Assembly: GCA_017471445.1 (NCBI GenBank) | Contig: JAFUTJ010000008.1 | Coordinates: 112,382 to 176,381 of the forward strand | Origin: Alphaproteobacteria bacterium | Lineage (GTDB): Bacteria > Pseudomonadota > Alphaproteobacteria > Rs-D84 | Length of the DNA stretch: 64,000 nucleotides | Direction of reading: 5' to 3' | Shown: positions 7,062-53,527 of the stretch, piece by piece | Numbering within the stretch: the first letter of the stretch is position 1 | How the letters are laid out: each line of letters begins with the position of its first letter | Notes under the pieces: model-generated | Database searches by the model: none | What the model saw: only the letters and a program-made list of their open reading frames with translations | What the model was told of the DNA's origin: nothing | Made by a program: the position numbers and the translations under genes

Positions 7062-7865
7062 ATGGAATATCAACCAGATATTAACGCTGCACGCAAAACA
7101 CTTAGAAACAAATTTGTTGCATCGATGATGCCTTTTTCGGAATATTCCAGCGCATATGTAATCACAAACGAGAATCTGCGTTCAGAATTGAAATACATGC
7201 CGATGCATACAAATCGCGCATTGGTTACAACCGGTTCGGGCGACCATCCGATATTTTGCGCATTAAATGGCGCATCACACGTTGACACATTTGATGTTAC
7301 ATACAATGCAAAATGCATTTTAGACATCAAAACGGCGGCATTTGGCGTTTTAAGTTTGAACGAATATTGGCAAATATTAAATAAGTTACATTATTCGCAG
7401 AATATTAAAAATCTGCCAAATATGGATTTGATATTACCCAGATTATCACCCATTGTGCGCGAATACATATATCAAATGAACGAATACCCAATATTTAGCC
7501 GTGGATTAGGCGCAGATTCATATAATCAATATGCCCCTTTGCCGGCTGAATACGAAATAATGCGCCAGAAAATACAGAATCAATTTCCATTTATATGGTC
7601 AAATATTGCCGATTTAGGCGAAAAATTGACGGAATCGTATGATTTTATTCATACGTCAAATATATTTGAGTATATAAAACCCAATGATATGGAACAGATT
7701 ATATCGCCGTTAATGAACCACACAAACATTGGCGGTCGAATAATTATGATACAACAACGCCCAAGCGGTCTGATTGGTGATTTCTGCCGGTTTATTGAAT
7801 CCAAAAAGTCAAATTGGCGTGCGATAAAAACAGGACACATCAACGTATTAGAACGCGAACGTTAA
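7062..7865 (+). CDS. DUF3419/BtaA-like SAM-dependent methyltransferase-fold protein, paralogue 1
   Basis: TTGSGDHPIFCALNGASHVDTFDVTYNAKCILDIKTAA resembles the DUF3419 pattern (S-x-G-D/C-N...V-x-x-VD-x-N/S-x-x-Q...LK-x-AA). C-terminal YDFIHTSNIFEY...GGRIIM is also consistent. Confidence 0.5.
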   Translation: MEYQPDINAARKTLRNKFVASMMPFSEYSSAYVITNENLRSELKYMPMHTNRALVTTGSGDHPIFCALNGASHVDTFDVTYNAKCILDIKTAAFGVLSLNEYWQILNKLHYSQNIKNLPNMDLILPRLSPIVREYIYQMNEYPIFSRGLGADSYNQYAPLPAEYEIMRQKIQNQFPFIWSNIADLGEKLTESYDFIHTSNIFEYIKPNDMEQIISPLMNHTNIGGRIIMIQQRPSGLIGDFCRFIESKKSNWRAIKTGHINVLERER

Positions 7866-7887
7866 TAAAGAAACAAGGTAAAACAAA

Positions 7888-8703
7888 ATGCAACACATAC
7901 CAGACGTAAATGCCGCACAAGAATCACTGCGACCAAACAAATCAGATAACACACCTTTGTTTTCCCGGTATTCGCGTGCATATAATATAACAAATGAAGA
8001 TTTGCATTCAACGTTACGGTATGCACGCTTAGACGGTAAAAGCATGCTGACTGTTGCGGCGTCTGGCGACCACCCATTATTTGGCACAATGTATGGTGCA
8101 TCGCATATTGATACGTTTGACGTTACATACAACGCAAAATGTATCATGGATATTAAGTCGGCGGCACTAGATACACTAGATTACAAAACATATTGTGCAA
8201 TGGTAATGGATTTTCATAATGCGCCCGATGTTACCGCCGTGAATGGAATGTCAAAAATCTTTCCAGATTTAGACAAGATTGAAAAACAATACATATACAA
8301 AATGCGCGGATACGGTATTTTCGGCATGGGCGTGCAATGTGCCGAACCGGAAAAATTCTTGCCATCCGAAAGCGAATACGAAAAAATGCGGGCCGCGCCA
8401 CATGGGCCATTCAATTTCATATGGTCTGATATTTCGGATTTACATACGCATTTGACACAGGAATATGATTTTATGCATCTGTCAAACATATTCCATTATA
8501 TGGAACCGCATGATTGTGAATCTGTGCTGGACAATTTAATGCCACATGTTGCGCCGGGCGGAATGATTATGTTCTATGATTTGCCATTTGGGTCAATGAT
8601 AACAAATTGCAAAAATCGTGCATATGCACACAATAAAAAATGGGCCGCGGAATACATTCCGGGTCGCCCAATTATTGTTATGTGCCGTTCGCACATCAGA
8701 TAA
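7888..8703 (+). CDS. DUF3419/BtaA-like SAM-dependent methyltransferase-fold protein, paralogue 2
   Basis: Collinear with 7062-7865: VAASGDHPLFGTMYGASHIDTFDVTYNAKCIMDIKSAA and YDFMHLSNIFHY...GGMIMF. A tandem duplicate. Confidence 0.5.
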   Translation: MQHIPDVNAAQESLRPNKSDNTPLFSRYSRAYNITNEDLHSTLRYARLDGKSMLTVAASGDHPLFGTMYGASHIDTFDVTYNAKCIMDIKSAALDTLDYKTYCAMVMDFHNAPDVTAVNGMSKIFPDLDKIEKQYIYKMRGYGIFGMGVQCAEPEKFLPSESEYEKMRAAPHGPFNFIWSDISDLHTHLTQEYDFMHLSNIFHYMEPHDCESVLDNLMPHVAPGGMIMFYDLPFGSMITNCKNRAYAHNKKWAAEYIPGRPIIVMCRSHIR

Positions 8704-24147: not shown

Positions 24148-25389
24148 ATGAATATTTTTCTGATGCTGTTGGCATTTTTATTCATGGGCACATATTACAT
24201 GTTATCTGGACCGTCATTACACCGGGAAACACATACGGTTGAATATGCGATAACCCAGGCCGATTTACGCGGCATTGCCGAATGCACTGCGGCGGTACAT
24301 AACGCATCAATCCGTGGTGGGGAATTTGATGACCAATGCGTTTCAGAAAATGGTATTACCAGCCTGTTTGTATGTCTAAACAAATCGCTGGATGTTACAG
24401 ATTGCAACGCATCAACCGGTCGCCGCCCGGTATTTAGTTACATTGTCACCGCGACATCACCGATACCAATGGACCAATATAACAACATGATGGAAATAAT
24501 GGACAAATACTATTCCGATGCGGGCACATTTGGGATATTTTCCGATGGCACAATTGCATCTGGGGGCACGGCCAGTCGCCGTATCGTCCCACGTGGTGTA
24601 ATTACAAAAATGGAATTAACCGCCGGTCAATTGGTATACATGACGCAATATGAAATTCCTGATGCAGATATTGAATTTACAGACCCAGAATCCGCCGATA
24701 TTTCATGCCCCGGCGGCACGATAAAGACATACCGCTTTGGCCGGTGGCAATGCGTGACCCATAATATGAAATCTGATTGTGGTGGCGATATGATATGGAA
24801 TTCGACTTTATATGAATGCGTCCCCGATGAATCGCGCAAGCCATTGTGTGCATCCAAACAAACGGCGGTTATTGTTGACGATGTATGGGAATGCATTGAC
24901 CCATTCCCAGAACAGAGCTGCGCCACCAACATGATATCGCGATTAAATTATGAAACACTGGAATGGGAATGTGTTCCTGACCCGGCGGCAACGGTTGATA
25001 CAAAAAAGTGCGCGGCGGCAACACGTGGTGTTGTATACGGTGGCATTGGGGCAACATTACGTGTTTCGGCGGCATCGTCATGCACCGATTGCGAACGTAT
25101 GATAATTGATTCTGAAACATGCGCATCTGCGTGCGTTCCCGACCCGGCTAAGATTAATTTACCCGCGTGCTATCCCGGAACAATTTCAGAATGCAGTGGC
25201 CCATCACGCGCATTTTATTTTGGTTTTACAAATGCATCCGCGGCGACAGGTGTGGATGCACTGAAAAATGCATATATACCAATTGATAAATCACATTCCC
25301 AGAATCGCCGCTTTAATTGCATGGACTGTGGTGCGGGCGAAATTGATTCTGCGCGTTCTGTTCCACCATACACCGCCATTTGTAAATAG
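24148..25389 (+). CDS. membrane-anchored Cys-rich repeat protein
   Basis: N-terminal TM helix. Five copies of a W/Y-x-C-V/I-x-D/P module: RWQCVTHN, LYECVPDE, VWECIDPF, EWECVPDP, ASACVPDP. Roughly 25-30 cysteines. Confidence 0.55.
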   Translation: MNIFLMLLAFLFMGTYYMLSGPSLHRETHTVEYAITQADLRGIAECTAAVHNASIRGGEFDDQCVSENGITSLFVCLNKSLDVTDCNASTGRRPVFSYIVTATSPIPMDQYNNMMEIMDKYYSDAGTFGIFSDGTIASGGTASRRIVPRGVITKMELTAGQLVYMTQYEIPDADIEFTDPESADISCPGGTIKTYRFGRWQCVTHNMKSDCGGDMIWNSTLYECVPDESRKPLCASKQTAVIVDDVWECIDPFPEQSCATNMISRLNYETLEWECVPDPAATVDTKKCAAATRGVVYGGIGATLRVSAASSCTDCERMIIDSETCASACVPDPAKINLPACYPGTISECSGPSRAFYFGFTNASAATGVDALKNAYIPIDKSHSQNRRFNCMDCGAGEIDSARSVPPYTAICK

Positions 25390-25392
25390 TGT

Positions 25393-26418
25393 TTATATCA
25401 GATTCTTTCGCAATTGTTGCACCAAATCTTGATTTGTTGTATGCGAAACATGTCGCATTATAAATTGTCGTAAATTATATGTGCATGCCCACTTTATCCA
25501 CCCGCGGGCGGCGGCAATGCGTCCAATGGCCAATGGTCGCGTATCATTACTTGTAATAATTCGTATAATACGTCGGCGAATTTTTAACGCGCCACGTCGG
25601 CGCAACATTATAAATCGTGGGAAATGCCGATACCCGATAAAAGATACGCCACACGCAACCCGCCCGACATTAAAGCGTGAAAAATCCATATTCAGTTTTT
25701 CACGCACAAATTCGCGAATGCGCCACGCCGCAACATGCAACATATGTGAATCATTACCATACAAACAGAAATCGTCACAATATCGAATATAGTCATGCCA
25801 TCGCAACACATGCTTAACAAACATATCCAGTTCATTCATATATACATTTCCCAACCATTGACTGGTCAGGTTTCCAATCGGCATATTTTTACCGGCCCCG
25901 CCCGACCGCACGATATTTTCCAGCAACGCGACAATCCGTACATCATTAATTTTATGACGAATTATTTGCATCAAAATTTCATGGTCAATTGACGGATAGA
26001 ATTTACGAATATCGCATTGCAAAACATACTTGTTCCGGCGCACAAATTGCATTGTTCGTTTTGATGCGGCGTGCAATCCGCGTCCTGAAATACACGCATA
26101 TGAATCACGAACAAACATACGTTGCCATATTGGCCCCAGAATGTTTATCAACGCATGTTGAACAATATGGTCGGGGTACAATGGTAATACGTATATCAGG
26201 CGTTCCTTGGGCTCAAACACACGGAACGTGCGATATTGCGACGTTGTATATTCCCCGCGCATTAACTGTTCGCGCAATCGTCGCAGGTTGCCATTGCGAT
26301 TGGCCATAAATGCACGCACGGCCCGGCGGGACTTTTTATTTTTAATTGCGCGCCGCGCCGCCAGGTCAAAATTTTCGGTTGAAATAAATTGATTCCAAAG
26401 ATTTTTGTATGTTTTCAT
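25393..26418 (-). CDS. reverse transcriptase, diversity-generating-retroelement (DGR) type
   Basis: EPKERLIY, DHIVQHALINIL, SYACISGRGLHAA, DIRKFYPSIDH, PIGNLTSQWLGNVY (DGR-diagnostic GxxxSQ), YIRYCDDF (YxDD box with Cys) and FIGYRHFP. Collinear along its whole length with Bordetella phage BPP-1 bRT as I recall it. Start moved to MKTYKNLWNQF (26418). Confidence 0.85.
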   Translation of the reverse strand: MKTYKNLWNQFISTENFDLAARRAIKNKKSRRAVRAFMANRNGNLRRLREQLMRGEYTTSQYRTFRVFEPKERLIYVLPLYPDHIVQHALINILGPIWQRMFVRDSYACISGRGLHAASKRTMQFVRRNKYVLQCDIRKFYPSIDHEILMQIIRHKINDVRIVALLENIVRSGGAGKNMPIGNLTSQWLGNVYMNELDMFVKHVLRWHDYIRYCDDFCLYGNDSHMLHVAAWRIREFVREKLNMDFSRFNVGRVACGVSFIGYRHFPRFIMLRRRGALKIRRRIIRIITSNDTRPLAIGRIAAARGWIKWACTYNLRQFIMRHVSHTTNQDLVQQLRKNLI

Positions 26419-26453
26419 TAATTGTTGGCTGTGGTATTTTGGGACAAATATTA

Positions 26454-26579
26454 CAATCACATGACCCACAATGTCCCACCAAAGACCAATGCAAATTGCA
26501 CCAACGTTTTTATTATCACGACACAAACAACCGCAGAAAATAACGTGGCACGATATTCTTGCTGTTTTTTGTTAAACAT
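26454..26579 (-). CDS. possible 41-aa hydrophobic micro-protein (speculative)
   Basis: ATG at 26579 gives MFNKKQQEYRATLFSAVVCVVIIKTLVQFALVFGGTLWVM. It has one TM-like helix and a weak RBS, and lies in the RT upstream spacer. Confidence 0.2.
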
Positions 26580-26585
26580 ACCACG

Positions 26586-27479
26586 TCACTTTTCCTGGGT
26601 CGCGATACGATTCTTCCAGAAATTGTTACGTTGGTTGTTTAATTTTGCAATTTCTGCCGTGACCCGTTCAATACGGTCGTTATATTCTGCAATATCAAAT
26701 TCTGCCTCTTTTATTTCTGCGGGCGATTCTGTCAACCGATTTACCATAATCCAATCTTCTATATTGCGGACGGATTGATGTAACCTTTCTTTCTGTTCTT
26801 CTTTTTGATGCAAATCAGATTCAATCGCATCGTATGCCATGGTATCAAATATAGAAATCTGGTATACTGCATTGTTGCGCGTTGGAACGGTTGTCCGGGG
26901 GCCATGACGCATATTTATATTTGCAATAATTTCGTCTGCACGCGCCCCGCCCGCACGTAAATCTGCCACATTGCATTCGGCAACAAAACGAAAGCAATCA
27001 CGGATATTTGCCAATGCATGATATCCCCGATTCATATGACCGTTATCTTGGATATATATTGTAACATACCCATTATTGTGCGTTCGTAACACATCATTCC
27101 ATTTACCGTTATTAAAACGGTTATTATTCATAAAATTAATTAAATAGTGTCGCAACTGGTTCAATTGCACATTATATTCACGTCCCCGACAAAATCGCAT
27201 AATATTGTTATGCCCATTAAACACGAACGGCGAACTTGTACCCCAACGCCCCGGGTTATATGACATTTGGGACCATAACGCGTTACAAATTGCATCACCA
27301 TCAATTTTACCAATATAAATCTCATCAAAACGGATGGGGTTATCATACCTTTCGCCAAGTTTCAGACGTGTCACCGACGCACTTAAATCCGCCGCTGAAA
27401 ATTCACCAACATATTTGGTTTGCGTATTGTAACGAATAACATCTTCGTAACAGGAATATTTTGATTTTTTGCGTGCCAT
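26586..27479 (-). CDS. hypothetical protein with Asn-rich globular N-domain and coiled-coil C-terminus
   Basis: 297-aa ORF directly upstream of the RT on the same strand. The C-terminal ~85 aa are predicted helical (EEQKERLHQSVRNIEDW...IERVTAEIAKLNN). No recognised family. Confidence 0.5.
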   Translation of the reverse strand: MARKKSKYSCYEDVIRYNTQTKYVGEFSAADLSASVTRLKLGERYDNPIRFDEIYIGKIDGDAICNALWSQMSYNPGRWGTSSPFVFNGHNNIMRFCRGREYNVQLNQLRHYLINFMNNNRFNNGKWNDVLRTHNNGYVTIYIQDNGHMNRGYHALANIRDCFRFVAECNVADLRAGGARADEIIANINMRHGPRTTVPTRNNAVYQISIFDTMAYDAIESDLHQKEEQKERLHQSVRNIEDWIMVNRLTESPAEIKEAEFDIAEYNDRIERVTAEIAKLNNQRNNFWKNRIATQEK

Positions 27480-27556
27480 ACAATCCCCCCATGGTTATAA
27501 CCCGGTTCATTATATATATAGCACGCATTAACGCTTTTGTCAATATTTGTCAACAA

Positions 27557-29149
27557 TCATATGTCGTTACGCGTAAATTTTCCAGAATCCAGCATATCGC
27601 GCACCATAAAATGACGAATCTTTTTTGCCGATGTCATTGGTAATTCATCGGTTGTGATGGCAAAGTGACCGACCCACTTGTACGGCGCAATTTTCAGGTT
27701 TGATGCCCGCACCAACAATGAAACCGTATCAATTGTGGTACCCGGCTTTACCTGAAACACCGCGAACGGAACAATTTTACCATTTATCGTATACTCAAAC
27801 ACTGCGGCCGCCAATATTTCCGGGTTTTGCAAATACAAGTCTTCCAATTCATCGGGGTAAACGTTTTTACCACTGTCCAAAACAATAACCTGTTTCTGAC
27901 GTCCACGCACAATCAGACGCCCACGCCGGTCGCGCATGCCCACATCGCCGGTGCGAAACCATCCATCTGGGGTAAACGCATCGCGATTCGCCGCGTCGTT
28001 ATCGATATAGCCCGGCATTAACATATTCCCCCGAAACCATATTTCACCAATACCATCGCGATTGGGATTATTAATCTTAATCTCGTTCCCACGCAGTGGC
28101 CCTGCATAATGTGTGCCGCGACCATCGGGATTTGGCACCGCCCAATTAAACAATGCCGGCCCCGTTGTTTCGGTTAAACCATAGCAATCACCCACCGAAA
28201 AACCCATGCGTTCGTAAAACTTGCGAATCGATGGCTTTAACGTTGCGCCCGCCGATACCAGCACGCGCGTATTTCCACCAAATGCATCATGCACCGGCCG
28301 CGTTACGCGCCGCACAACACACCCCAGCCCACACGCACGCAATATATGCCGCATTGATATAATGCAACGCATTAACGTCCATGCATGCTTGTCCCGTGCC
28401 GAATCGACAATTTTTTTATAAAACACTTCCCAAATACGGGGAACCGCGGGAATAACCTCTGGCTTGTACTGTTTCCAGTCTTTGATAAATTCTTGCGGTT
28501 TTAATACAGGTTGCAGCAATAATTTACACTGTAAACACACAGGAACGATTATATTTATCACCACACCATATATATGATACAGTGGTAAAAAACCATAAAA
28601 TGTAAAGCCCGGACGCACAACATGCGCATAAAAATACGCCCCGTTTACCAACCCCAACAGGTTGCCATGCGTGATACCAACAACTTTTGGATTTCCGGTG
28701 GACCCAGATGTGAACGATAACTGGGCAATATCGGCCGGACCAACATCGGCGGCAACAAAATCTGATTCGTCTGTGTCATCAATGTTTTCGATATCAAACA
28801 TCTGAAAACCCGCATCATCGAATCTGTGTACGGCATCTGCCAAAACCAATTTACAATTTGTGCGGCGAATCATATTCACGTGTTCCACACGCGCCAACCC
28901 AGTATCCAACATTAAACATTTTGCACCGATTGCCGTAATTGCATAATACGACCGAACAAAATCCGGCGTATTACCCGACAATATTCCAACCGTATCACCA
29001 CGGCGAATACCAAAACGCTGGGCCAATAATACCGCACGACGCTTTACCTTGGTCAATAAATCTGAATATGTTTCATTCTGGCGCACAAAGAATATGTTGT
29101 CGCGATTGCGCGCACAAACATCCGCCAACATTTCATAAATATTTTTCAT
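27557..29149 (-). CDS. AMP-dependent synthetase/ligase (long-chain fatty-acid-CoA ligase-like)
   Basis: AMP-binding signature SFTSGSTGNPKVV, then YGLTET and GWFRTGD. Confidence 0.85.
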   Translation of the reverse strand: MKNIYEMLADVCARNRDNIFFVRQNETYSDLLTKVKRRAVLLAQRFGIRRGDTVGILSGNTPDFVRSYYAITAIGAKCLMLDTGLARVEHVNMIRRTNCKLVLADAVHRFDDAGFQMFDIENIDDTDESDFVAADVGPADIAQLSFTSGSTGNPKVVGITHGNLLGLVNGAYFYAHVVRPGFTFYGFLPLYHIYGVVINIIVPVCLQCKLLLQPVLKPQEFIKDWKQYKPEVIPAVPRIWEVFYKKIVDSARDKHAWTLMRCIISMRHILRACGLGCVVRRVTRPVHDAFGGNTRVLVSAGATLKPSIRKFYERMGFSVGDCYGLTETTGPALFNWAVPNPDGRGTHYAGPLRGNEIKINNPNRDGIGEIWFRGNMLMPGYIDNDAANRDAFTPDGWFRTGDVGMRDRRGRLIVRGRQKQVIVLDSGKNVYPDELEDLYLQNPEILAAAVFEYTINGKIVPFAVFQVKPGTTIDTVSLLVRASNLKIAPYKWVGHFAITTDELPMTSAKKIRHFMVRDMLDSGKFTRNDI

Positions 29150-29552: not shown

Positions 29553-31613
29553 ATGTCTGATGTACAAAACGAAGTAAAGATTCAAATCCTGCCGACACTG
29601 ACCACAAAGTTGGTTGCCGTGCAAAAGCGGTCTGGCGAAACCGTGCCATTTGATGCGAAAAAGATTTTTGACGCAATTAAAAAGGCCGTTGCGGTTACAA
29701 CTGAAATGACCGACCAACAGATTGCAAATGCAACGCAGAGTGTGTTGGACAAACTGGACGAAAAATTCGCCGAAAAAACACCAACGGTTGAAGATATTCA
29801 AGAAACAGTTATTCAGACATTAATGGACACCCATGCCTATAAGACGGCCGAGGCATATATTGTTTACCGTCATAAACGCAACGAAATTCGTCACGCAATG
29901 GTTGATGCCGTTGATATTATCGAAGGCTATGTCGGTGGTTCCAATTGGCGAATCAAAGAAAATGCAAATATCGGTTATTCAATTGGTGGGTTAATTCTGC
30001 GCACGTCGGAACGCGTAACGGCGGAATATTGGTTGAACCTGTACCCACGCGAAGTAGCCGACGCGCACAAATCCGCCGCAATTCATATTCATGACCTGGG
30101 GTGGTTAACCGGGTACTGTGCGGGCTGGTCACTGCGCGAGTTATTATACGAGGGGTTCAACGGTGTGCCGGGTTACCTGCAATGCGAACCGGCGAAACAC
30201 ATGGCAACGGCAATTTCGCACATGGTAAATTTCTTGGGCACGTTGCAAAACGAATTTGCCGGTGCCCAGGCGTTTTCATCGGTTGATACGTATCTGGCAC
30301 CATATGTCAGAATCGACAAACTGTCGTATGCAGACGTTAAAAACGCGATGCAAACACTGGTATTTAACTGTGCGGTGCCGTGCCGTTGGGGAACACAAAC
30401 ACCGTTTATTAACTTTACATTTGATTGGACATGTCCAAAAGACCTGGCAAATCAGCGGCCATTTGTCGGCAAGAAACAGGTTGACTTTACCTATGGCGAT
30501 TTACAGGCGGAAATGGACACCATTAACAAAGCATTTATAGAAGTTATGACCGAAGGCGATGCCCAGGGTCGTCCGTTTACATTCCCAATTCCGACATATA
30601 ATATCACGCCTGATTTTCCGTGGGATCATCCGAATGTAAAGCCATTGTTTGACCTGGCGGCAAAATATGGTATTCCGAATTTCCAGAATTTCTTGAATTC
30701 TGACCTGAACCCGACCGATGTGCGTTCAATGTGTTGTCGGTTACGGCTGGACGTGCGTGAATTGTTAAAGCGCGGCGGCGGTCTGTTTGGCTCAGCGGAA
30801 AAGACCGGTTCAATTGGCGTTGTAACAATCAACCTGTCGCGGTTGGGATATACACACCGTGGCGACCGTGACGGCCTGTTCCGCGAATTACAGCGTTTAT
30901 TAAACTTGGGGCGCGATTCGCTGGAAATCAAGCGCAAGATTATTTCCAAGAACATGGAACGTGGACTGTATCCGTTTACCAAACGCTATCTGGGCAACTG
31001 GAATCACCACTTTTCAACTATCGGCGTAAATGGCGCGAACGAAATGGTTATGAACTTTACAAACGGCACCGAAAGCATTGCAACGCCGTTTGGGAAAAAA
31101 CTGGTTTTGGACGTTATGGACTTTATTCGCGAAAACCTGGCCAATTTCCAGGAAGAAACCGGCAATCTGTATAATTTAGAGGCAACACCGGCCGAAGGCT
31201 GCTCTTATCGATTTGCCAAGACCGATAAAAAGAATTTCCCGGACATCATCACGGCCGGCACACCTGATGCACCGTATTACACAAATTCAACCCAGTTACC
31301 GGTGAACTATACCGATGATCCATTTGTTGCACTGGAACACCAAGAAGAATTACAGCGTAAATATACCGGTGGCACAATGTTGCACCTATATATGGGTGAA
31401 CCGGTGTCATCTGGGGCGGCCGCGCAAAAAATTGTTCGCACGATATTCGAAAACTATCGCATACCGTACATGACATTAACCCCGACATTTTCAATATGTC
31501 CAAAACATGGGTATTTGGCGGGTGCGTACGATTTCTGTCCGAAATGCGACGCGGAAATTGTGGCCAACCAAGACACATGCAAATGCGATTGCGAACGGAT
31601 GGACGATAAATAA
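29553..31613 (+). CDS. nrdD: anaerobic ribonucleoside-triphosphate reductase NrdD, large polypeptide lacking the glycyl-radical loop
   Basis: N-terminal ATP-cone (VQKRSGETVPFDAKKI), a class III RNR core, and a C-terminal zinc-ribbon-like CPKHG...CPKCD. The ORF stops before the expected RxxGY glycyl-radical motif. Confidence 0.85.
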   Translation: MSDVQNEVKIQILPTLTTKLVAVQKRSGETVPFDAKKIFDAIKKAVAVTTEMTDQQIANATQSVLDKLDEKFAEKTPTVEDIQETVIQTLMDTHAYKTAEAYIVYRHKRNEIRHAMVDAVDIIEGYVGGSNWRIKENANIGYSIGGLILRTSERVTAEYWLNLYPREVADAHKSAAIHIHDLGWLTGYCAGWSLRELLYEGFNGVPGYLQCEPAKHMATAISHMVNFLGTLQNEFAGAQAFSSVDTYLAPYVRIDKLSYADVKNAMQTLVFNCAVPCRWGTQTPFINFTFDWTCPKDLANQRPFVGKKQVDFTYGDLQAEMDTINKAFIEVMTEGDAQGRPFTFPIPTYNITPDFPWDHPNVKPLFDLAAKYGIPNFQNFLNSDLNPTDVRSMCCRLRLDVRELLKRGGGLFGSAEKTGSIGVVTINLSRLGYTHRGDRDGLFRELQRLLNLGRDSLEIKRKIISKNMERGLYPFTKRYLGNWNHHFSTIGVNGANEMVMNFTNGTESIATPFGKKLVLDVMDFIRENLANFQEETGNLYNLEATPAEGCSYRFAKTDKKNFPDIITAGTPDAPYYTNSTQLPVNYTDDPFVALEHQEELQRKYTGGTMLHLYMGEPVSSGAAAQKIVRTIFENYRIPYMTLTPTFSICPKHGYLAGAYDFCPKCDAEIVANQDTCKCDCERMDDK

Positions 31614-31657
31614 CAATACAAATCAACAAAAACTAACAAAAAAAAGGAGAAAGAAAA

Positions 31658-31837
31658 ATGACAAACACAAACAGAACACCATGCGAAAAATTTTCACGTT
31701 CAATGGGATTCATTCGCCCGGTCAGCAATTTTAACGTTGGCAAATATTCTGAATTCTGTGAACGCAAGACATTTACAGAAACAAACAGTTTGACCACCGG
31801 CGCACGCCACTGTGAATTGATGAAGAAAGCGGCGTAA
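31658..31837 (+). CDS. 59-aa ORF encoding the NrdD glycyl-radical loop
   Basis: RBS AGGAGA 8 nt upstream of the ATG at 31658. Translation is MTNTNRTPCEKFSRSMGFIRPVSNFNVGKYSEFCERKTF.... It matches the NrdD C-terminal pattern R-x-x-G-[YF]-[LI]...N-x-GK-x-x-E...R. It is below the 60-aa cut-off of the ORF track and in a different frame from nrdD. Confidence 0.6.
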   Translation: MTNTNRTPCEKFSRSMGFIRPVSNFNVGKYSEFCERKTFTETNSLTTGARHCELMKKAA

Positions 31838-51147: not shown

Positions 51148-51975
51148 TTAGTGTTGGTCTGCAATATCTGCACATTTAACGCGCACGATACCGTTGTTAT
51201 CAATTAATACTGCACCTTGGGACATGCTGTTGCTGATAAAGTGCGCGGCGCGTTCACCATGCCATGAAATATCGGTTTTGACATCTTGCCCGCATGCATG
51301 ACCAATGCTGGATGCATGATAGATAAAGCAATCACGATTATCATCTTTGACCGGCAATGCGTTATACATTACCCATGTAATACCCAACCATTTTTTGGAT
51401 TCAAACCCGCGTGTTAATGGCGAATCAGTTACATAATCTGCGGAAACAAATTCGTCCATTGATAACAATTCGTTCCATTGGCGTACCCCCACAACCGCAA
51501 AGCGGCGGCCATCGTCAGGAACATCGTTTGCGTTTAATATTTCAACCGCAGACAAAATTAAATTTTTGGTCAGACCTGTTGAATAATCACCAACTGCGGT
51601 TTCTGCCGAATTCATTGCATCAACGATTAATTCATCACTCTTGCGTCCCAACGCATACGCACCGGCCGACGCAACGACACGACGTTCGTCAATATTGGTC
51701 TTTAATTCATCCATACGGTCAACCCAATCGCCCGCATAGTAATCAGACAATACGCATTCAACCGGTTCATGTTCCAGATTCATAACCGGAACAATGCCGT
51801 GACGTGATTTTGTACTGGCCACGCCACGCCCAATTTTTGGGAATGTTGTGGATGCGCCAACAACACCCGATTTACTGCGTACTGTTGAACGCAGTTTTGT
51901 GCCCATTTGTTGGTAAGCCAAGTGTACATCGGCTTCGAACTGCTTAATAAAAACATTATCTATGGAAACAGACAT
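51148..51975 (-). CDS. major capsid protein (T7 gp10-like HK97 fold)
   Basis: FIKQFEADVHLAY...GASTTFPKIGRG...DELKTNIDERRVVASAGAYALGRKSDELIVDAM parallels T7 gp10 FLKVFGGEVLTAF...SAQFPVLGR...DVRSEYTSQLGESLAMAADGAVL. Confidence 0.6.
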   Translation of the reverse strand: MSVSIDNVFIKQFEADVHLAYQQMGTKLRSTVRSKSGVVGASTTFPKIGRGVASTKSRHGIVPVMNLEHEPVECVLSDYYAGDWVDRMDELKTNIDERRVVASAGAYALGRKSDELIVDAMNSAETAVGDYSTGLTKNLILSAVEILNANDVPDDGRRFAVVGVRQWNELLSMDEFVSADYVTDSPLTRGFESKKWLGITWVMYNALPVKDDNRDCFIYHASSIGHACGQDVKTDISWHGERAAHFISNSMSQGAVLIDNNGIVRVKCADIADQH

Positions 51976-52145
51976 TTTATAATTATCCTTTTATTAATTA
52001 TTAGTTTTATATATTGCATTTTATTTTGTGTGCCGGTTGTGCAATATGCGCCGGTATGCAAAAGTCGGGTCCAAAAAATGGATTGCCCGGGAAAATTCTG
52101 ATTAATGATTTCCATTTATATGCAAATCAAAAATCATAAATCAGA

Positions 52146-52202
52146 AAAAATGCCCGGCTATTAAATACCGGGCATTAAAATAAAAAACCCGCATTACGCG
52201 GG
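52146..52202 (-). terminator. two tandem rho-independent terminators downstream of the KA-repeat gene
   Basis: On the minus strand, CCCGC-GTAAT-GCGGG followed by TTTTTT (52188-52202 region), then ATGCCCGG...CCGGGCAT followed by TTTTTT (52146-52178). Confidence 0.6.
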
Positions 52203-52212
52203 AAAATAAAAA

Positions 52213-52569
52213 TTATTTTTTCTTGGTGGCTGTCTTTTTGGCGACAGTCTTTTTAACCGTTGCTTTTTTTGCAACCGGTTTTTTAGCAGCAACTTTCTTT
52301 ACAGTTGGCTTTTTCGCCGCAACTGTTTTCTTTGCAACCGGCTTTTTTGCGGCTGTTGCTTTTTTTGCAACAGGCTTTTTCGCCGCAACAGTTTTCTTTG
52401 CGACTGGCTTTTTCGCCGCAACTGTTTTCTTTGCAGCAGGTTTCGTCGCCGTTGCTTTCTTTACCGCCGGCTTTTTCGCCGCAACCGTTTTCTTTGCAGC
52501 AGGTTTCGCAGCCGGTTTCTTTGCAGCAACTGTCTTTTTCGCTGCAGATTTTAAGAATGTGAATGCCAT
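52213..52569 (-). CDS. histone H1-like lysine/alanine-rich repeat protein
   Basis: 118 aa made almost entirely of AAKKP(V/A)AKKTV-type repeats. Strong RBS GAAGGAGAG before the ATG at 52569. The opposite-strand 138-aa ORF is an antisense shadow. Confidence 0.75.
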   Translation of the reverse strand: MAFTFLKSAAKKTVAAKKPAAKPAAKKTVAAKKPAVKKATATKPAAKKTVAAKKPVAKKTVAAKKPVAKKATAAKKPVAKKTVAAKKPTVKKVAAKKPVAKKATVKKTVAKKTATKKK

Positions 52570-52680
52570 TCTTCTCTCCTTCTTGTGTCATTTTTGGATA
52601 GAACAAAATCGTTTTGTTCTTGCTTTATATTTTATATGAATAAAAAAAATTAGTAAAGGAGAAAGTAACTTTTTTTTGTA

Positions 52681-53337
52681 TTATGAATACAATTTCTTGA
52701 AACCATTTTCTATTTTGCGAATATATTCTGCATCGTTATCACGCCAATATTTTGGATCGCGCATCATGCGACGCAAGTCATCATCTGTTAAATTTTCAGA
52801 TACATTTTTTTCGGTACGCACATCTGGTTCCATTGATTGCATCATCTTGTAAATGCTTTGGATTCCCTGGGGTGTGGCGCACAATGCATCAAACGCATCG
52901 CGTGGTAAAAACTTTTCACCAAATGCATTTATTGCATTTAATGCGTCACGTGTTTTTTCATCACTACCGAAAAAATTTTTCATTTCTGACATTGCAGATG
53001 TTTCATTTTGCATTGCAAACAAATCAGATATAACAGGTGATAAAAATTCTGTTGCCAAGGAATAAATTTTTTCAACCTGGGCCGATGTTAATCCAATTTC
53101 ACGAAATTTTTGTCGCAACGAATCGTCATCAAATAAATCATTCGTTGGATAATCTGATGCATTTTCTGGCACACCAATTGCACGATTAAATTTTTCACGC
53201 GTGGCGTCATCTGAATTTTCATCTGGGATTGAAATCATTGAACCGATTTTCTTTTCCAATTCACAATATGATTTTATCAACGCATCTGTATTTAGTGTGC
53301 CATCATTGTTCTTGAATTTTTCTGGAATTTTTTCCAT
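52681..53337 (-). CDS. capsid scaffolding/assembly protein-like
   Basis: MEKIPEKFKNNDGTLNTDALIKSYCELEKKIG is typical of podovirus scaffold N-termini. Acidic and helical, and positioned upstream of the capsid gene. Start moved to 53337. Confidence 0.5.
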   Translation of the reverse strand: MEKIPEKFKNNDGTLNTDALIKSYCELEKKIGSMISIPDENSDDATREKFNRAIGVPENASDYPTNDLFDDDSLRQKFREIGLTSAQVEKIYSLATEFLSPVISDLFAMQNETSAMSEMKNFFGSDEKTRDALNAINAFGEKFLPRDAFDALCATPQGIQSIYKMMQSMEPDVRTEKNVSENLTDDDLRRMMRDPKYWRDNDAEYIRKIENGFKKLYS

Positions 53338-53338
53338 T

Positions 53339-53527
53339 TTATTTTCCTTTTGTTTCATTTGTTTGCTGCATAAAGTAAATGCCACCAATTGTAAATAATG
53401 CACCACACATCGCAAACAAATCAGAATCACCAACCATGTATGCAGCAATTGCAGATATTATTCCAATCGCAGACATTATTCGTGTGCGCGAATTTGCAAA
53501 AAAACCACCACTGAATATTTTATTCAT
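53339..53527 (-). CDS. small two-TM protein (holin-like)
   Basis: MNKIFSGGFFANSRTRIMSAIGIISAIAAYMVG..FAMCGALFTIGGIYF. Lies directly after the hydrolase gene. An alternative start is at 53548. Confidence 0.4.
   Translation of the reverse strand: MNKIFSGGFFANSRTRIMSAIGIISAIAAYMVGDSDLFAMCGALFTIGGIYFMQQTNETKGK

Follow-up and report, generated by a model that had tools for sequence, protein, structure and literature searches.

A diversity-generating retroelement-type reverse transcriptase gene, intact and probably orphaned from its cassette, between two host genes of an alphaproteobacterium of order Rs-D84

The window analysed here is a 64,000 nt stretch of an alphaproteobacterial contig (JAFUTJ010000008.1, positions 112,382 to 176,381; order Rs-D84). 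It carries a reverse transcriptase (RT) gene of the kind found in diversity-generating retroelements (DGRs), situated between two convergent genes, termed p297 and p413 from the lengths of their products. A preliminary description of the locus had recognized the RT, had seen no template repeat (TR), variable repeat (VR) or Avd accessory protein around it, and had proposed either that these are remote or cryptic or that the RT had been recruited to a non-DGR role together with its neighbours. The features of the locus are as follows, with open reading frame abbreviated as ORF.

24148..25389, plus strand: p413, a convergent Cys-rich gene of 413 aa that ends 3 nt from the RT stop codon; a host gene and not a DGR part
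25390..26585: a segment of 1196 nt comprising the RT and its spacer, absent from syntenic relatives and lineage-specific
25393..26526, minus strand: the RT ORF (ORF map)
25393..26418, minus strand: the RT gene as read from the conserved MKTYKNLW start at ATG 26418, 341 aa, intact; assigned to the DGR clade from the ORF, a Pfam RVT_1 match and the best PDB match, bRT
26419..26585, minus strand: the spacer of 167 nt, 5' of the RT
26457..26579, minus strand: an incidental hydrophobic ORF of 40 aa inside the spacer
26586..27479, minus strand: p297, 297 aa; likewise a host gene and not a DGR part
27557..29149, minus strand: an acyl-CoA-ligase-like gene (Pfam AMP-binding, E 5.6e-58), termed the AMP-ligase gene below; the upstream synteny anchor

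At the amino acid level, the RT translation contains DHIVQHALINIL, SYACISGRGLHAA, PIGNLTSQ and YCDD. The first two motifs and the DGR motif-4 signature had been read in the preliminary description, and all are present; IGNLTSQ is common to the active relatives of the RT. Collinearity with the RT of Bordetella phage BPP-1 (bRT), which had been put forward in the preliminary description, is borne out by a phmmer search of all PDB chains, where the best match is bRT (8ub7_A, E 3.8e-49), collinear over residues 3-320 against 3-318. The runner-up matches, at about 1e-16, are RTs of group II introns and chains deposited under the name 'Retron-type reverse transcriptase'. Among NCBIfam models, the group II model TIGR04416 gives 108.6 bits against a cutoff of 300, and the retron, DRT and Abi models fall far under their cutoffs (St85, 59.3 against 235; Drt3a, 42.5 against 200; Drt2, 33.7 against 390; AbiA, 30.5 against 250). 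PADLOC DRT/UG models match the RT in part only, and the protein has no maturase/X-domain-specific or effector domain. There is no Rfam match at E<=1 between 24000 and 29500, be it an intron RNA, a retron RNA or another non-coding RNA. Because bRT is by far the best solved relative, and because relatives that are 50-65% identical adjoin adenine-biased TR/VR pairs, the RT is a member of the DGR clade.

The RT protein is 100% identical to NCBI MBR1380254.1 (IJ560_01560), from an alphaproteobacterial metagenome-assembled genome (MAG). It has thousands of homologues, the nearest of which, at 55-65% identity, are encoded in gut and rumen MAGs of 'Ca. Enterousia' / order Rs-D84. The Cys residue in the catalytic box had been singled out as a notable deviation, a view that does not survive comparison: YCDD is found in all 120 of the 120 best homologues, relatives with TR/VR pairs included, and when the window RT is compared with 20 relatives, 15 of the 21 have YCDD and six have YSDD. 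Since DGRs of the same clade with adenine-biased TR/VR differences carry YCDD, it is the normal box of the clade, and it is ruled out as a mark of altered function.

The cassettes in which such RTs reside were characterized at related loci of Rs-D84 / 'Ca. Enterousia' (L002, L006-L028, L040 and L041). ORF maps reveal a fixed order, consisting of a target gene with a C-terminal VR, the TR, a gene for a conserved 108-aa accessory protein, and the RT. A diagonal scan, which searches exhaustively and in both orientations for repeats whose mismatches fall on the A (or T) residues of one copy, detects, in the 50-65% identical relatives, TR/VR pairs that lie about 0.3-1.5 kb 5' of the RT, with 10-21 mismatches at A sites against 0-4 elsewhere. 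A nucleotide profile built from 14 TRs detects, in addition to many VRs, the TR of 21 related loci at E<1e-44. The accessory gene is directly 5' of the RT in 19 related loci (for example L013:9657-9983, L002:9548-9874 and L041:6215-6541), in most cases with a gap of 0-25 nt or an overlap. In some cassettes a small ORF with a GIY-YIG domain lies between the accessory and the RT (L006:9652-9990; L040:2779-3102).

The accessory protein, with the pattern MTLDEI...PMPG...KIDKYYSFS, belongs to no Pfam family and has no sequence match to any PDB chain, Avd included. Its family comprises 310 clusters in a collection of 5.8 billion proteins, and none of the best 120 of these 310 is annotated by Pfam. 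To judge from sequence comparison, it may represent a non-Avd class of DGR accessory beyond the four described in a large survey of DGRs in GenBank (PMC5758913).

The closest relatives of the window RT, those of P0002 and P0004 (64-65% identity), belong to complete cassettes at another locus, ArgRS ... DUF308-TspO-Dus-RodZ-UvrA, and this ArgRS ... UvrA cassette locus is not found in the window. Partial cassettes also occur in the lineage. In L029 (9233-10381), a target with a VR-like end adjoins an RT that is truncated at about residue 119, and there is neither TR nor accessory. In L012 (6249-8100) and L013 (9171-11038), TR, accessory and RT are kept, and no VR is present in the 6-9 kb of upstream sequence examined.

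Searches of the window reveal none of the other cassette components. The diagonal scan was run at 50 nt with the whole window as candidate TR and at 40 nt with 18-34 kb as candidate TR, with at most two non-A mismatches in both settings, and a planted synthetic VR was recovered as a control. The 50-nt scan of the whole window gives no A- or T-biased repeat, and the looser 40-nt scan gives trivial matches only, from an A-rich tract at 31606-31677. This tract runs from the 3' end of nrdD into the beginning of the nrdD-nrdG spacer, and as it produces trivial matches in A-mismatch scans it should be masked in DGR searches. No candidate repeat is found in the window by blastn at word size 7. The best window match to the TR profile of the family has an E of 0.44, against E<1e-44 at the related loci.

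The accessory protein is missing in the same way. A hidden Markov model of the protein run against the six-frame translated window has its best match at E 0.32, at an unrelated site; the best window match of the accessory nucleotide profile is at E 0.47, with none in 25300-27600 even at E<=100. The target and accessory proteins of L002 have no tblastn match in the window. Stretches of the same scaffold that reach 8.8 kb and 8.4 kb past the window ends also have no TR, VR or accessory. Thus no TR, VR or accessory accompanies the RT over about 34 kb to one side and about 46 kb to the other, some 81 kb in all. No target with a C-type-lectin or Ig-like variable domain is found either, p297 having no fold match and p413 neither a family match nor a VR-profile match. 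The earlier by-eye impression that no TR/VR pair is recognizable and that no Avd lies near the RT is thereby upheld.

Comparison with syntenic relatives places the RT in a short gap between genes that are found together without it. In L035-L037 the order is AMP-ligase (82% amino acid identity), p297 homologue, a 21-nt hairpin and a convergent p413 homologue (65% identity), with no RT. The 40-kb contig L039 has NrdG-NrdD, AMP-ligase, p297 homologue, 42 nt, a convergent 413-aa gene, LptE, HolA, Map and RadC; this is the gene order of the window over 16.8 kb, collinear by blastn on both sides, again with no RT. L038 has the NrdD, AMP-ligase and p297 side in common with the window. The gap between the p297 and p413 stop codons is 21-42 nt in the syntenic relatives, as opposed to 1196 nt in the window, and by parsimony the RT and spacer (25390-26585) are best viewed as a lineage-specific insertion. 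As the block of AMP-ligase, p297 and p413 genes occurs without the RT in L035-L037 and L039, its members are resident chromosomal genes and not partners of the RT. A co-option of the RT into a joint role with these neighbours, as had been proposed, accordingly finds no support in the conserved gene order.

The convergent Cys-rich ORF that had been seen abutting the 3' end of the RT corresponds to p413. Its homologues include those of L035 (65% identity) and L039 (413 aa) and a 55% identical one in L006. p413 has no family match, no match to the TR or VR profiles and no A-biased repeat, and a hydrophobic N-terminus suggests that the protein may be secreted.

p297 was described earlier as an unknown protein. 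A word-index protein search was empty, giving the appearance of an ORFan, but exhaustive HMMER searches overturned this and place it in a family with 92 representative clusters, in which full-length matches are 37-43% identical and the synteny described above is conserved. An AlphaFold2 model built with 36 homologues (pLDDT 91.6) has an alpha/beta N-terminal domain followed by a long coiled-coil hairpin. No PDB fold matches the model at E<0.001, and the sequence belongs to no Pfam, PHROG or PADLOC family. A Laminin_G_3 match (E 0.0064, below cutoff) is taken as chance, since it is seen in only one of 36 family members. Comparison with the 108-aa accessory by hhalign gives a probability of 0.05%. 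p297 was thus rejected as an Avd, an accessory or a C-type-lectin target, having a coiled-coil C-terminus in place of a four-helix bundle and no matching fold, in agreement with the original view that it is not Avd-like. The protein evolves faster (43-46% identity) than the AMP-ligase (82%) and p413 (65%). Separately, a premature-stop allele of p297 occurs at window position 27088, where Leu131 TTA is changed to TAA and the gene is split into ORFs of 130 aa and 149 aa; this allele is in two independent ENA contigs (L001 and L045), and the intact allele is in four other contigs.

The spacer upstream of the RT is of the length first reported, 167 nt, and has the small hydrophobic ORF, at 40 aa. 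About 25 nt next to the RT ATG resemble the accessory-RT spacer of L002, and the remaining 140 nt or so match nothing. Neither accessory genes (nhmmer) nor the TR profile show similarity to the spacer, its folding is on a par with that of shuffled sequences (z = -0.17), and it gives no Rfam match at E<=1. On this evidence a decayed accessory, a TR or a structured RNA was rejected as its origin, and with them the suggestion of a cryptic TR at this position. A by-eye likeness between 'PKYHSQQ' in the spacer and the accessory end 'DKYYSFS' is without statistical support and was also set aside.

The RT sequence itself is undecayed. Of 98 columns that are near-invariant in 20 relatives, it departs at four, in each case by exchange for a similar residue (L->M, I->V, P->S and L->M). 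Other Enterousia-type relatives depart at 0-5 of these columns, and the distant L024, which is 45% identical, at 31. The profile score of the window RT, 543.9 bits, is within the leave-one-out range of its relatives, 514-591.

Signals for its expression are less well preserved. In relatives, translation of the RT is coupled to the accessory gene or a GGGG-type ribosome-binding site is present; at ATG 26418 of the window RT, neither a GGGG-type (Shine-Dalgarno) site nor translational coupling is found. The start is called differently in different sources, as ATG 26418 by NCBI (341 aa) and as GTG 26469, which lies within the spacer, by ENA and Logan (358 aa).

The arrangement is identical in the independent assemblies L001, L044 and L045. 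Relative to the window, L044 has no single-nucleotide polymorphism (SNP) over 21 kb (100% identical), L001 has one and L045 has four, with none in the RT, and this absence of SNPs in the RT leaves the same-strain assemblies with no power to measure selection. The MEGAHIT contig L001, which corresponds to window 25386-27722, stops exactly at the RT/p413 junction (25386); low coverage or a mixture of strains at the insertion boundary may account for this end.

The locus is probably best explained as an intact DGR RT that has been orphaned from its cassette and now lies between two host genes of a gut or rumen alphaproteobacterium with a reduced genome. A rearrangement or partial transfer would have separated the RT from its TR, accessory and target, and the RT ORF, together with about 25 nt of recognizable upstream sequence, would have ended in the short gap between the convergent p297 and p413 genes. 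Synthesis of DGR cDNA requires a TR-containing RNA, and in the Rs-D84 family presumably the accessory too; for this reason an orphaned RT would be unable to carry out mutagenic retrohoming at its present locus. Orphaning is plausible because partial or decayed cassettes occur in the same lineage (L029, L012 and L013). 'Incomplete DGR cassettes' located by DGRscan are also mentioned in the survey (PMC5758913), and a direct quantitative statement on orphan DGR RTs was not found in the literature. That the RT is a recently orphaned relic, functionless or barely expressed, is favoured by a narrow balance, since the conserved ATG has no Shine-Dalgarno sequence and the coupling to an upstream accessory is lost.

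Several observations weigh against orphaning or against relic status. The RT ORF is full length, 94 of the 98 near-invariant residues are kept, and its profile score is that of relatives in intact cassettes. Genomes of the lineage ('Ca. Enterousia' / Rs-D84) are smaller than 1 Mb (PMC12306168). Useless DNA would be expected to go quickly from genomes of this size, and an undecayed 1-kb gene therefore hints at either recent orphaning or a retained function. Translation of the RT is possible from the in-frame GTG 26469, which is preceded by GGTGGG and is chosen by some gene callers. Insertion in this strain as opposed to deletion in the relatives is decided by parsimony only, deletion being the less parsimonious course. 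The absence of the other components covers about 81 kb of a genome of roughly 0.9 Mb, and the absence of an IJ560-tagged accessory from the best 120 of the 310 accessory clusters is a weak negative.

These points bear on a split DGR, in which a rearrangement merely relocated the RT gene and a functional RT acts in trans on a cassette of TR, accessory and target that lies on another contig or at a distance of more than 35-45 kb. This is a possible but distinctly less likely explanation than orphaning. It would account for an RT that is as conserved as those of intact-cassette relatives and for an arrangement that is the same in all independent assemblies of the strain, but with 0-4 SNPs in 5-21 kb these assemblies are almost clonal, so that a 'fixed' arrangement carries little weight. 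Partial cassettes in relatives, such as L012 and L013 with no VR in the upstream sequence covered, are in keeping with a split, as are the targets more than 100 kb away that have been documented for chromosomal DGRs (PMC5758913). In the same survey, however, TR and RT, with or without avd, form the core of every DGR architecture and only targets are reported to be remote (PMC5758913); a remote TR would therefore be unusual. In all 19-21 relatives the TR and accessory are contiguous with the RT. The weak negative on IJ560-tagged accessories and the lack of a ribosome-binding site or translational coupling at the conserved RT start also speak against a working RT in trans. Taken together with a TR-independent role, the broader notion that this genome of less than 1 Mb retains an intact RT, physically separated from TR and accessory, on account of a continuing activity is to be regarded as tentative.

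A TR/VR-independent role on its own, such as defence-type cDNA synthesis by an RT possibly co-transcribed with the AMP-ligase and p297, is very unlikely. The RT is on the same strand as p297 with no terminator predicted between them, its ORF is intact and there are the partial PADLOC DRT/UG matches; against this, the neighbours are conserved without an RT in relatives and so form no conserved module with it, the NCBIfam DRT, retron and Abi scores are far under cutoffs, and the RT has no added domain and no clade-specific changes beyond the four similar-residue swaps. A second case of a solo RT was not seen among the loci examined. Still more improbable, and largely refuted, is a cryptic local DGR in which p297, whose core is rich in Asn, or p413 serves as target or template and the repeats have diverged beyond recognition. 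p297 is fast-evolving, and its Asn-rich stretch contains the sole difference between the window and L001, but this SNP is a T/A change that makes a stop codon and is one of four SNPs in 5 kb. Neither the exhaustive scan nor blastn at word size 7 gave a genuine A-biased repeat, the p297 and p413 families occupy the same place without any RT, and the p297 fold, with its C-terminal coiled coil, is neither C-type-lectin nor Ig-like.

Elsewhere in the window, matches to phage capsid and scaffold families (Phage_T7_Capsid and Phage_capsid_2) are found at about 51680-53340, some 26 kb from the RT, with a diverged tandem repeat array at 52217-52546 in their midst. The region, possibly what is left of a prophage, has no TR/VR signal. 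At 7062-8703 there are two adjacent paralogues with weak DUF3419 matches and about 58% nucleotide identity over 453 nt.

In relation to known systems, the window RT resembles that of the BPP-1 DGR (mtd-avd-TR-brt; RT structure PDB 8ub7) in being collinear with bRT over 318 residues and in its IGxxxSQ motif 4. It differs in the lack of a TR, VR, target and accessory over about 81 kb and in having YCDD, the clade norm, where bRT has YMDD; the 108-aa accessory of the Rs-D84 family, for its part, has no sequence similarity to Avd. With the Rs-D84 / 'Ca. Enterousia' cassettes it shares the RT clade (55-65% identity), IGNLTSQ, the YCDD/YSDD box and the host lineage, but those cassettes hold target-VR, TR and accessory at other chromosomal positions, whereas the window RT is between unrelated genes. 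Incomplete cassettes such as L029 and those of the survey (PMC5758913) likewise have DGR components without the full set, and L029 is from the same bacterial lineage; in L029, however, the RT is truncated and a VR-like target remains, while in the window it is the RT that is intact and the other components that are missing. Group II intron RT/maturases and retron and UG/DRT/Abi RTs have the RT palm-and-fingers core (RVT_1) in common with the window RT and match it in part, but it is far under all of their family cutoffs.

The window RT is thus a displaced member of a well-populated and known DGR family, and a caution follows from it, namely that odd-looking neighbours of a DGR-type RT are no evidence for a new retroelement system. 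The Rs-D84 / Enterousia lineage, gut bacteria with reduced genomes, commonly carries DGRs with a 108-aa accessory that has no Pfam or Avd match. Should the RT prove to act in trans, it would offer a natural case of a DGR with RT and template at separate loci, and would bear on how the RNA-protein complex assembles; a split DGR of this type would mean that in nature RT and TR need not be linked in cis.

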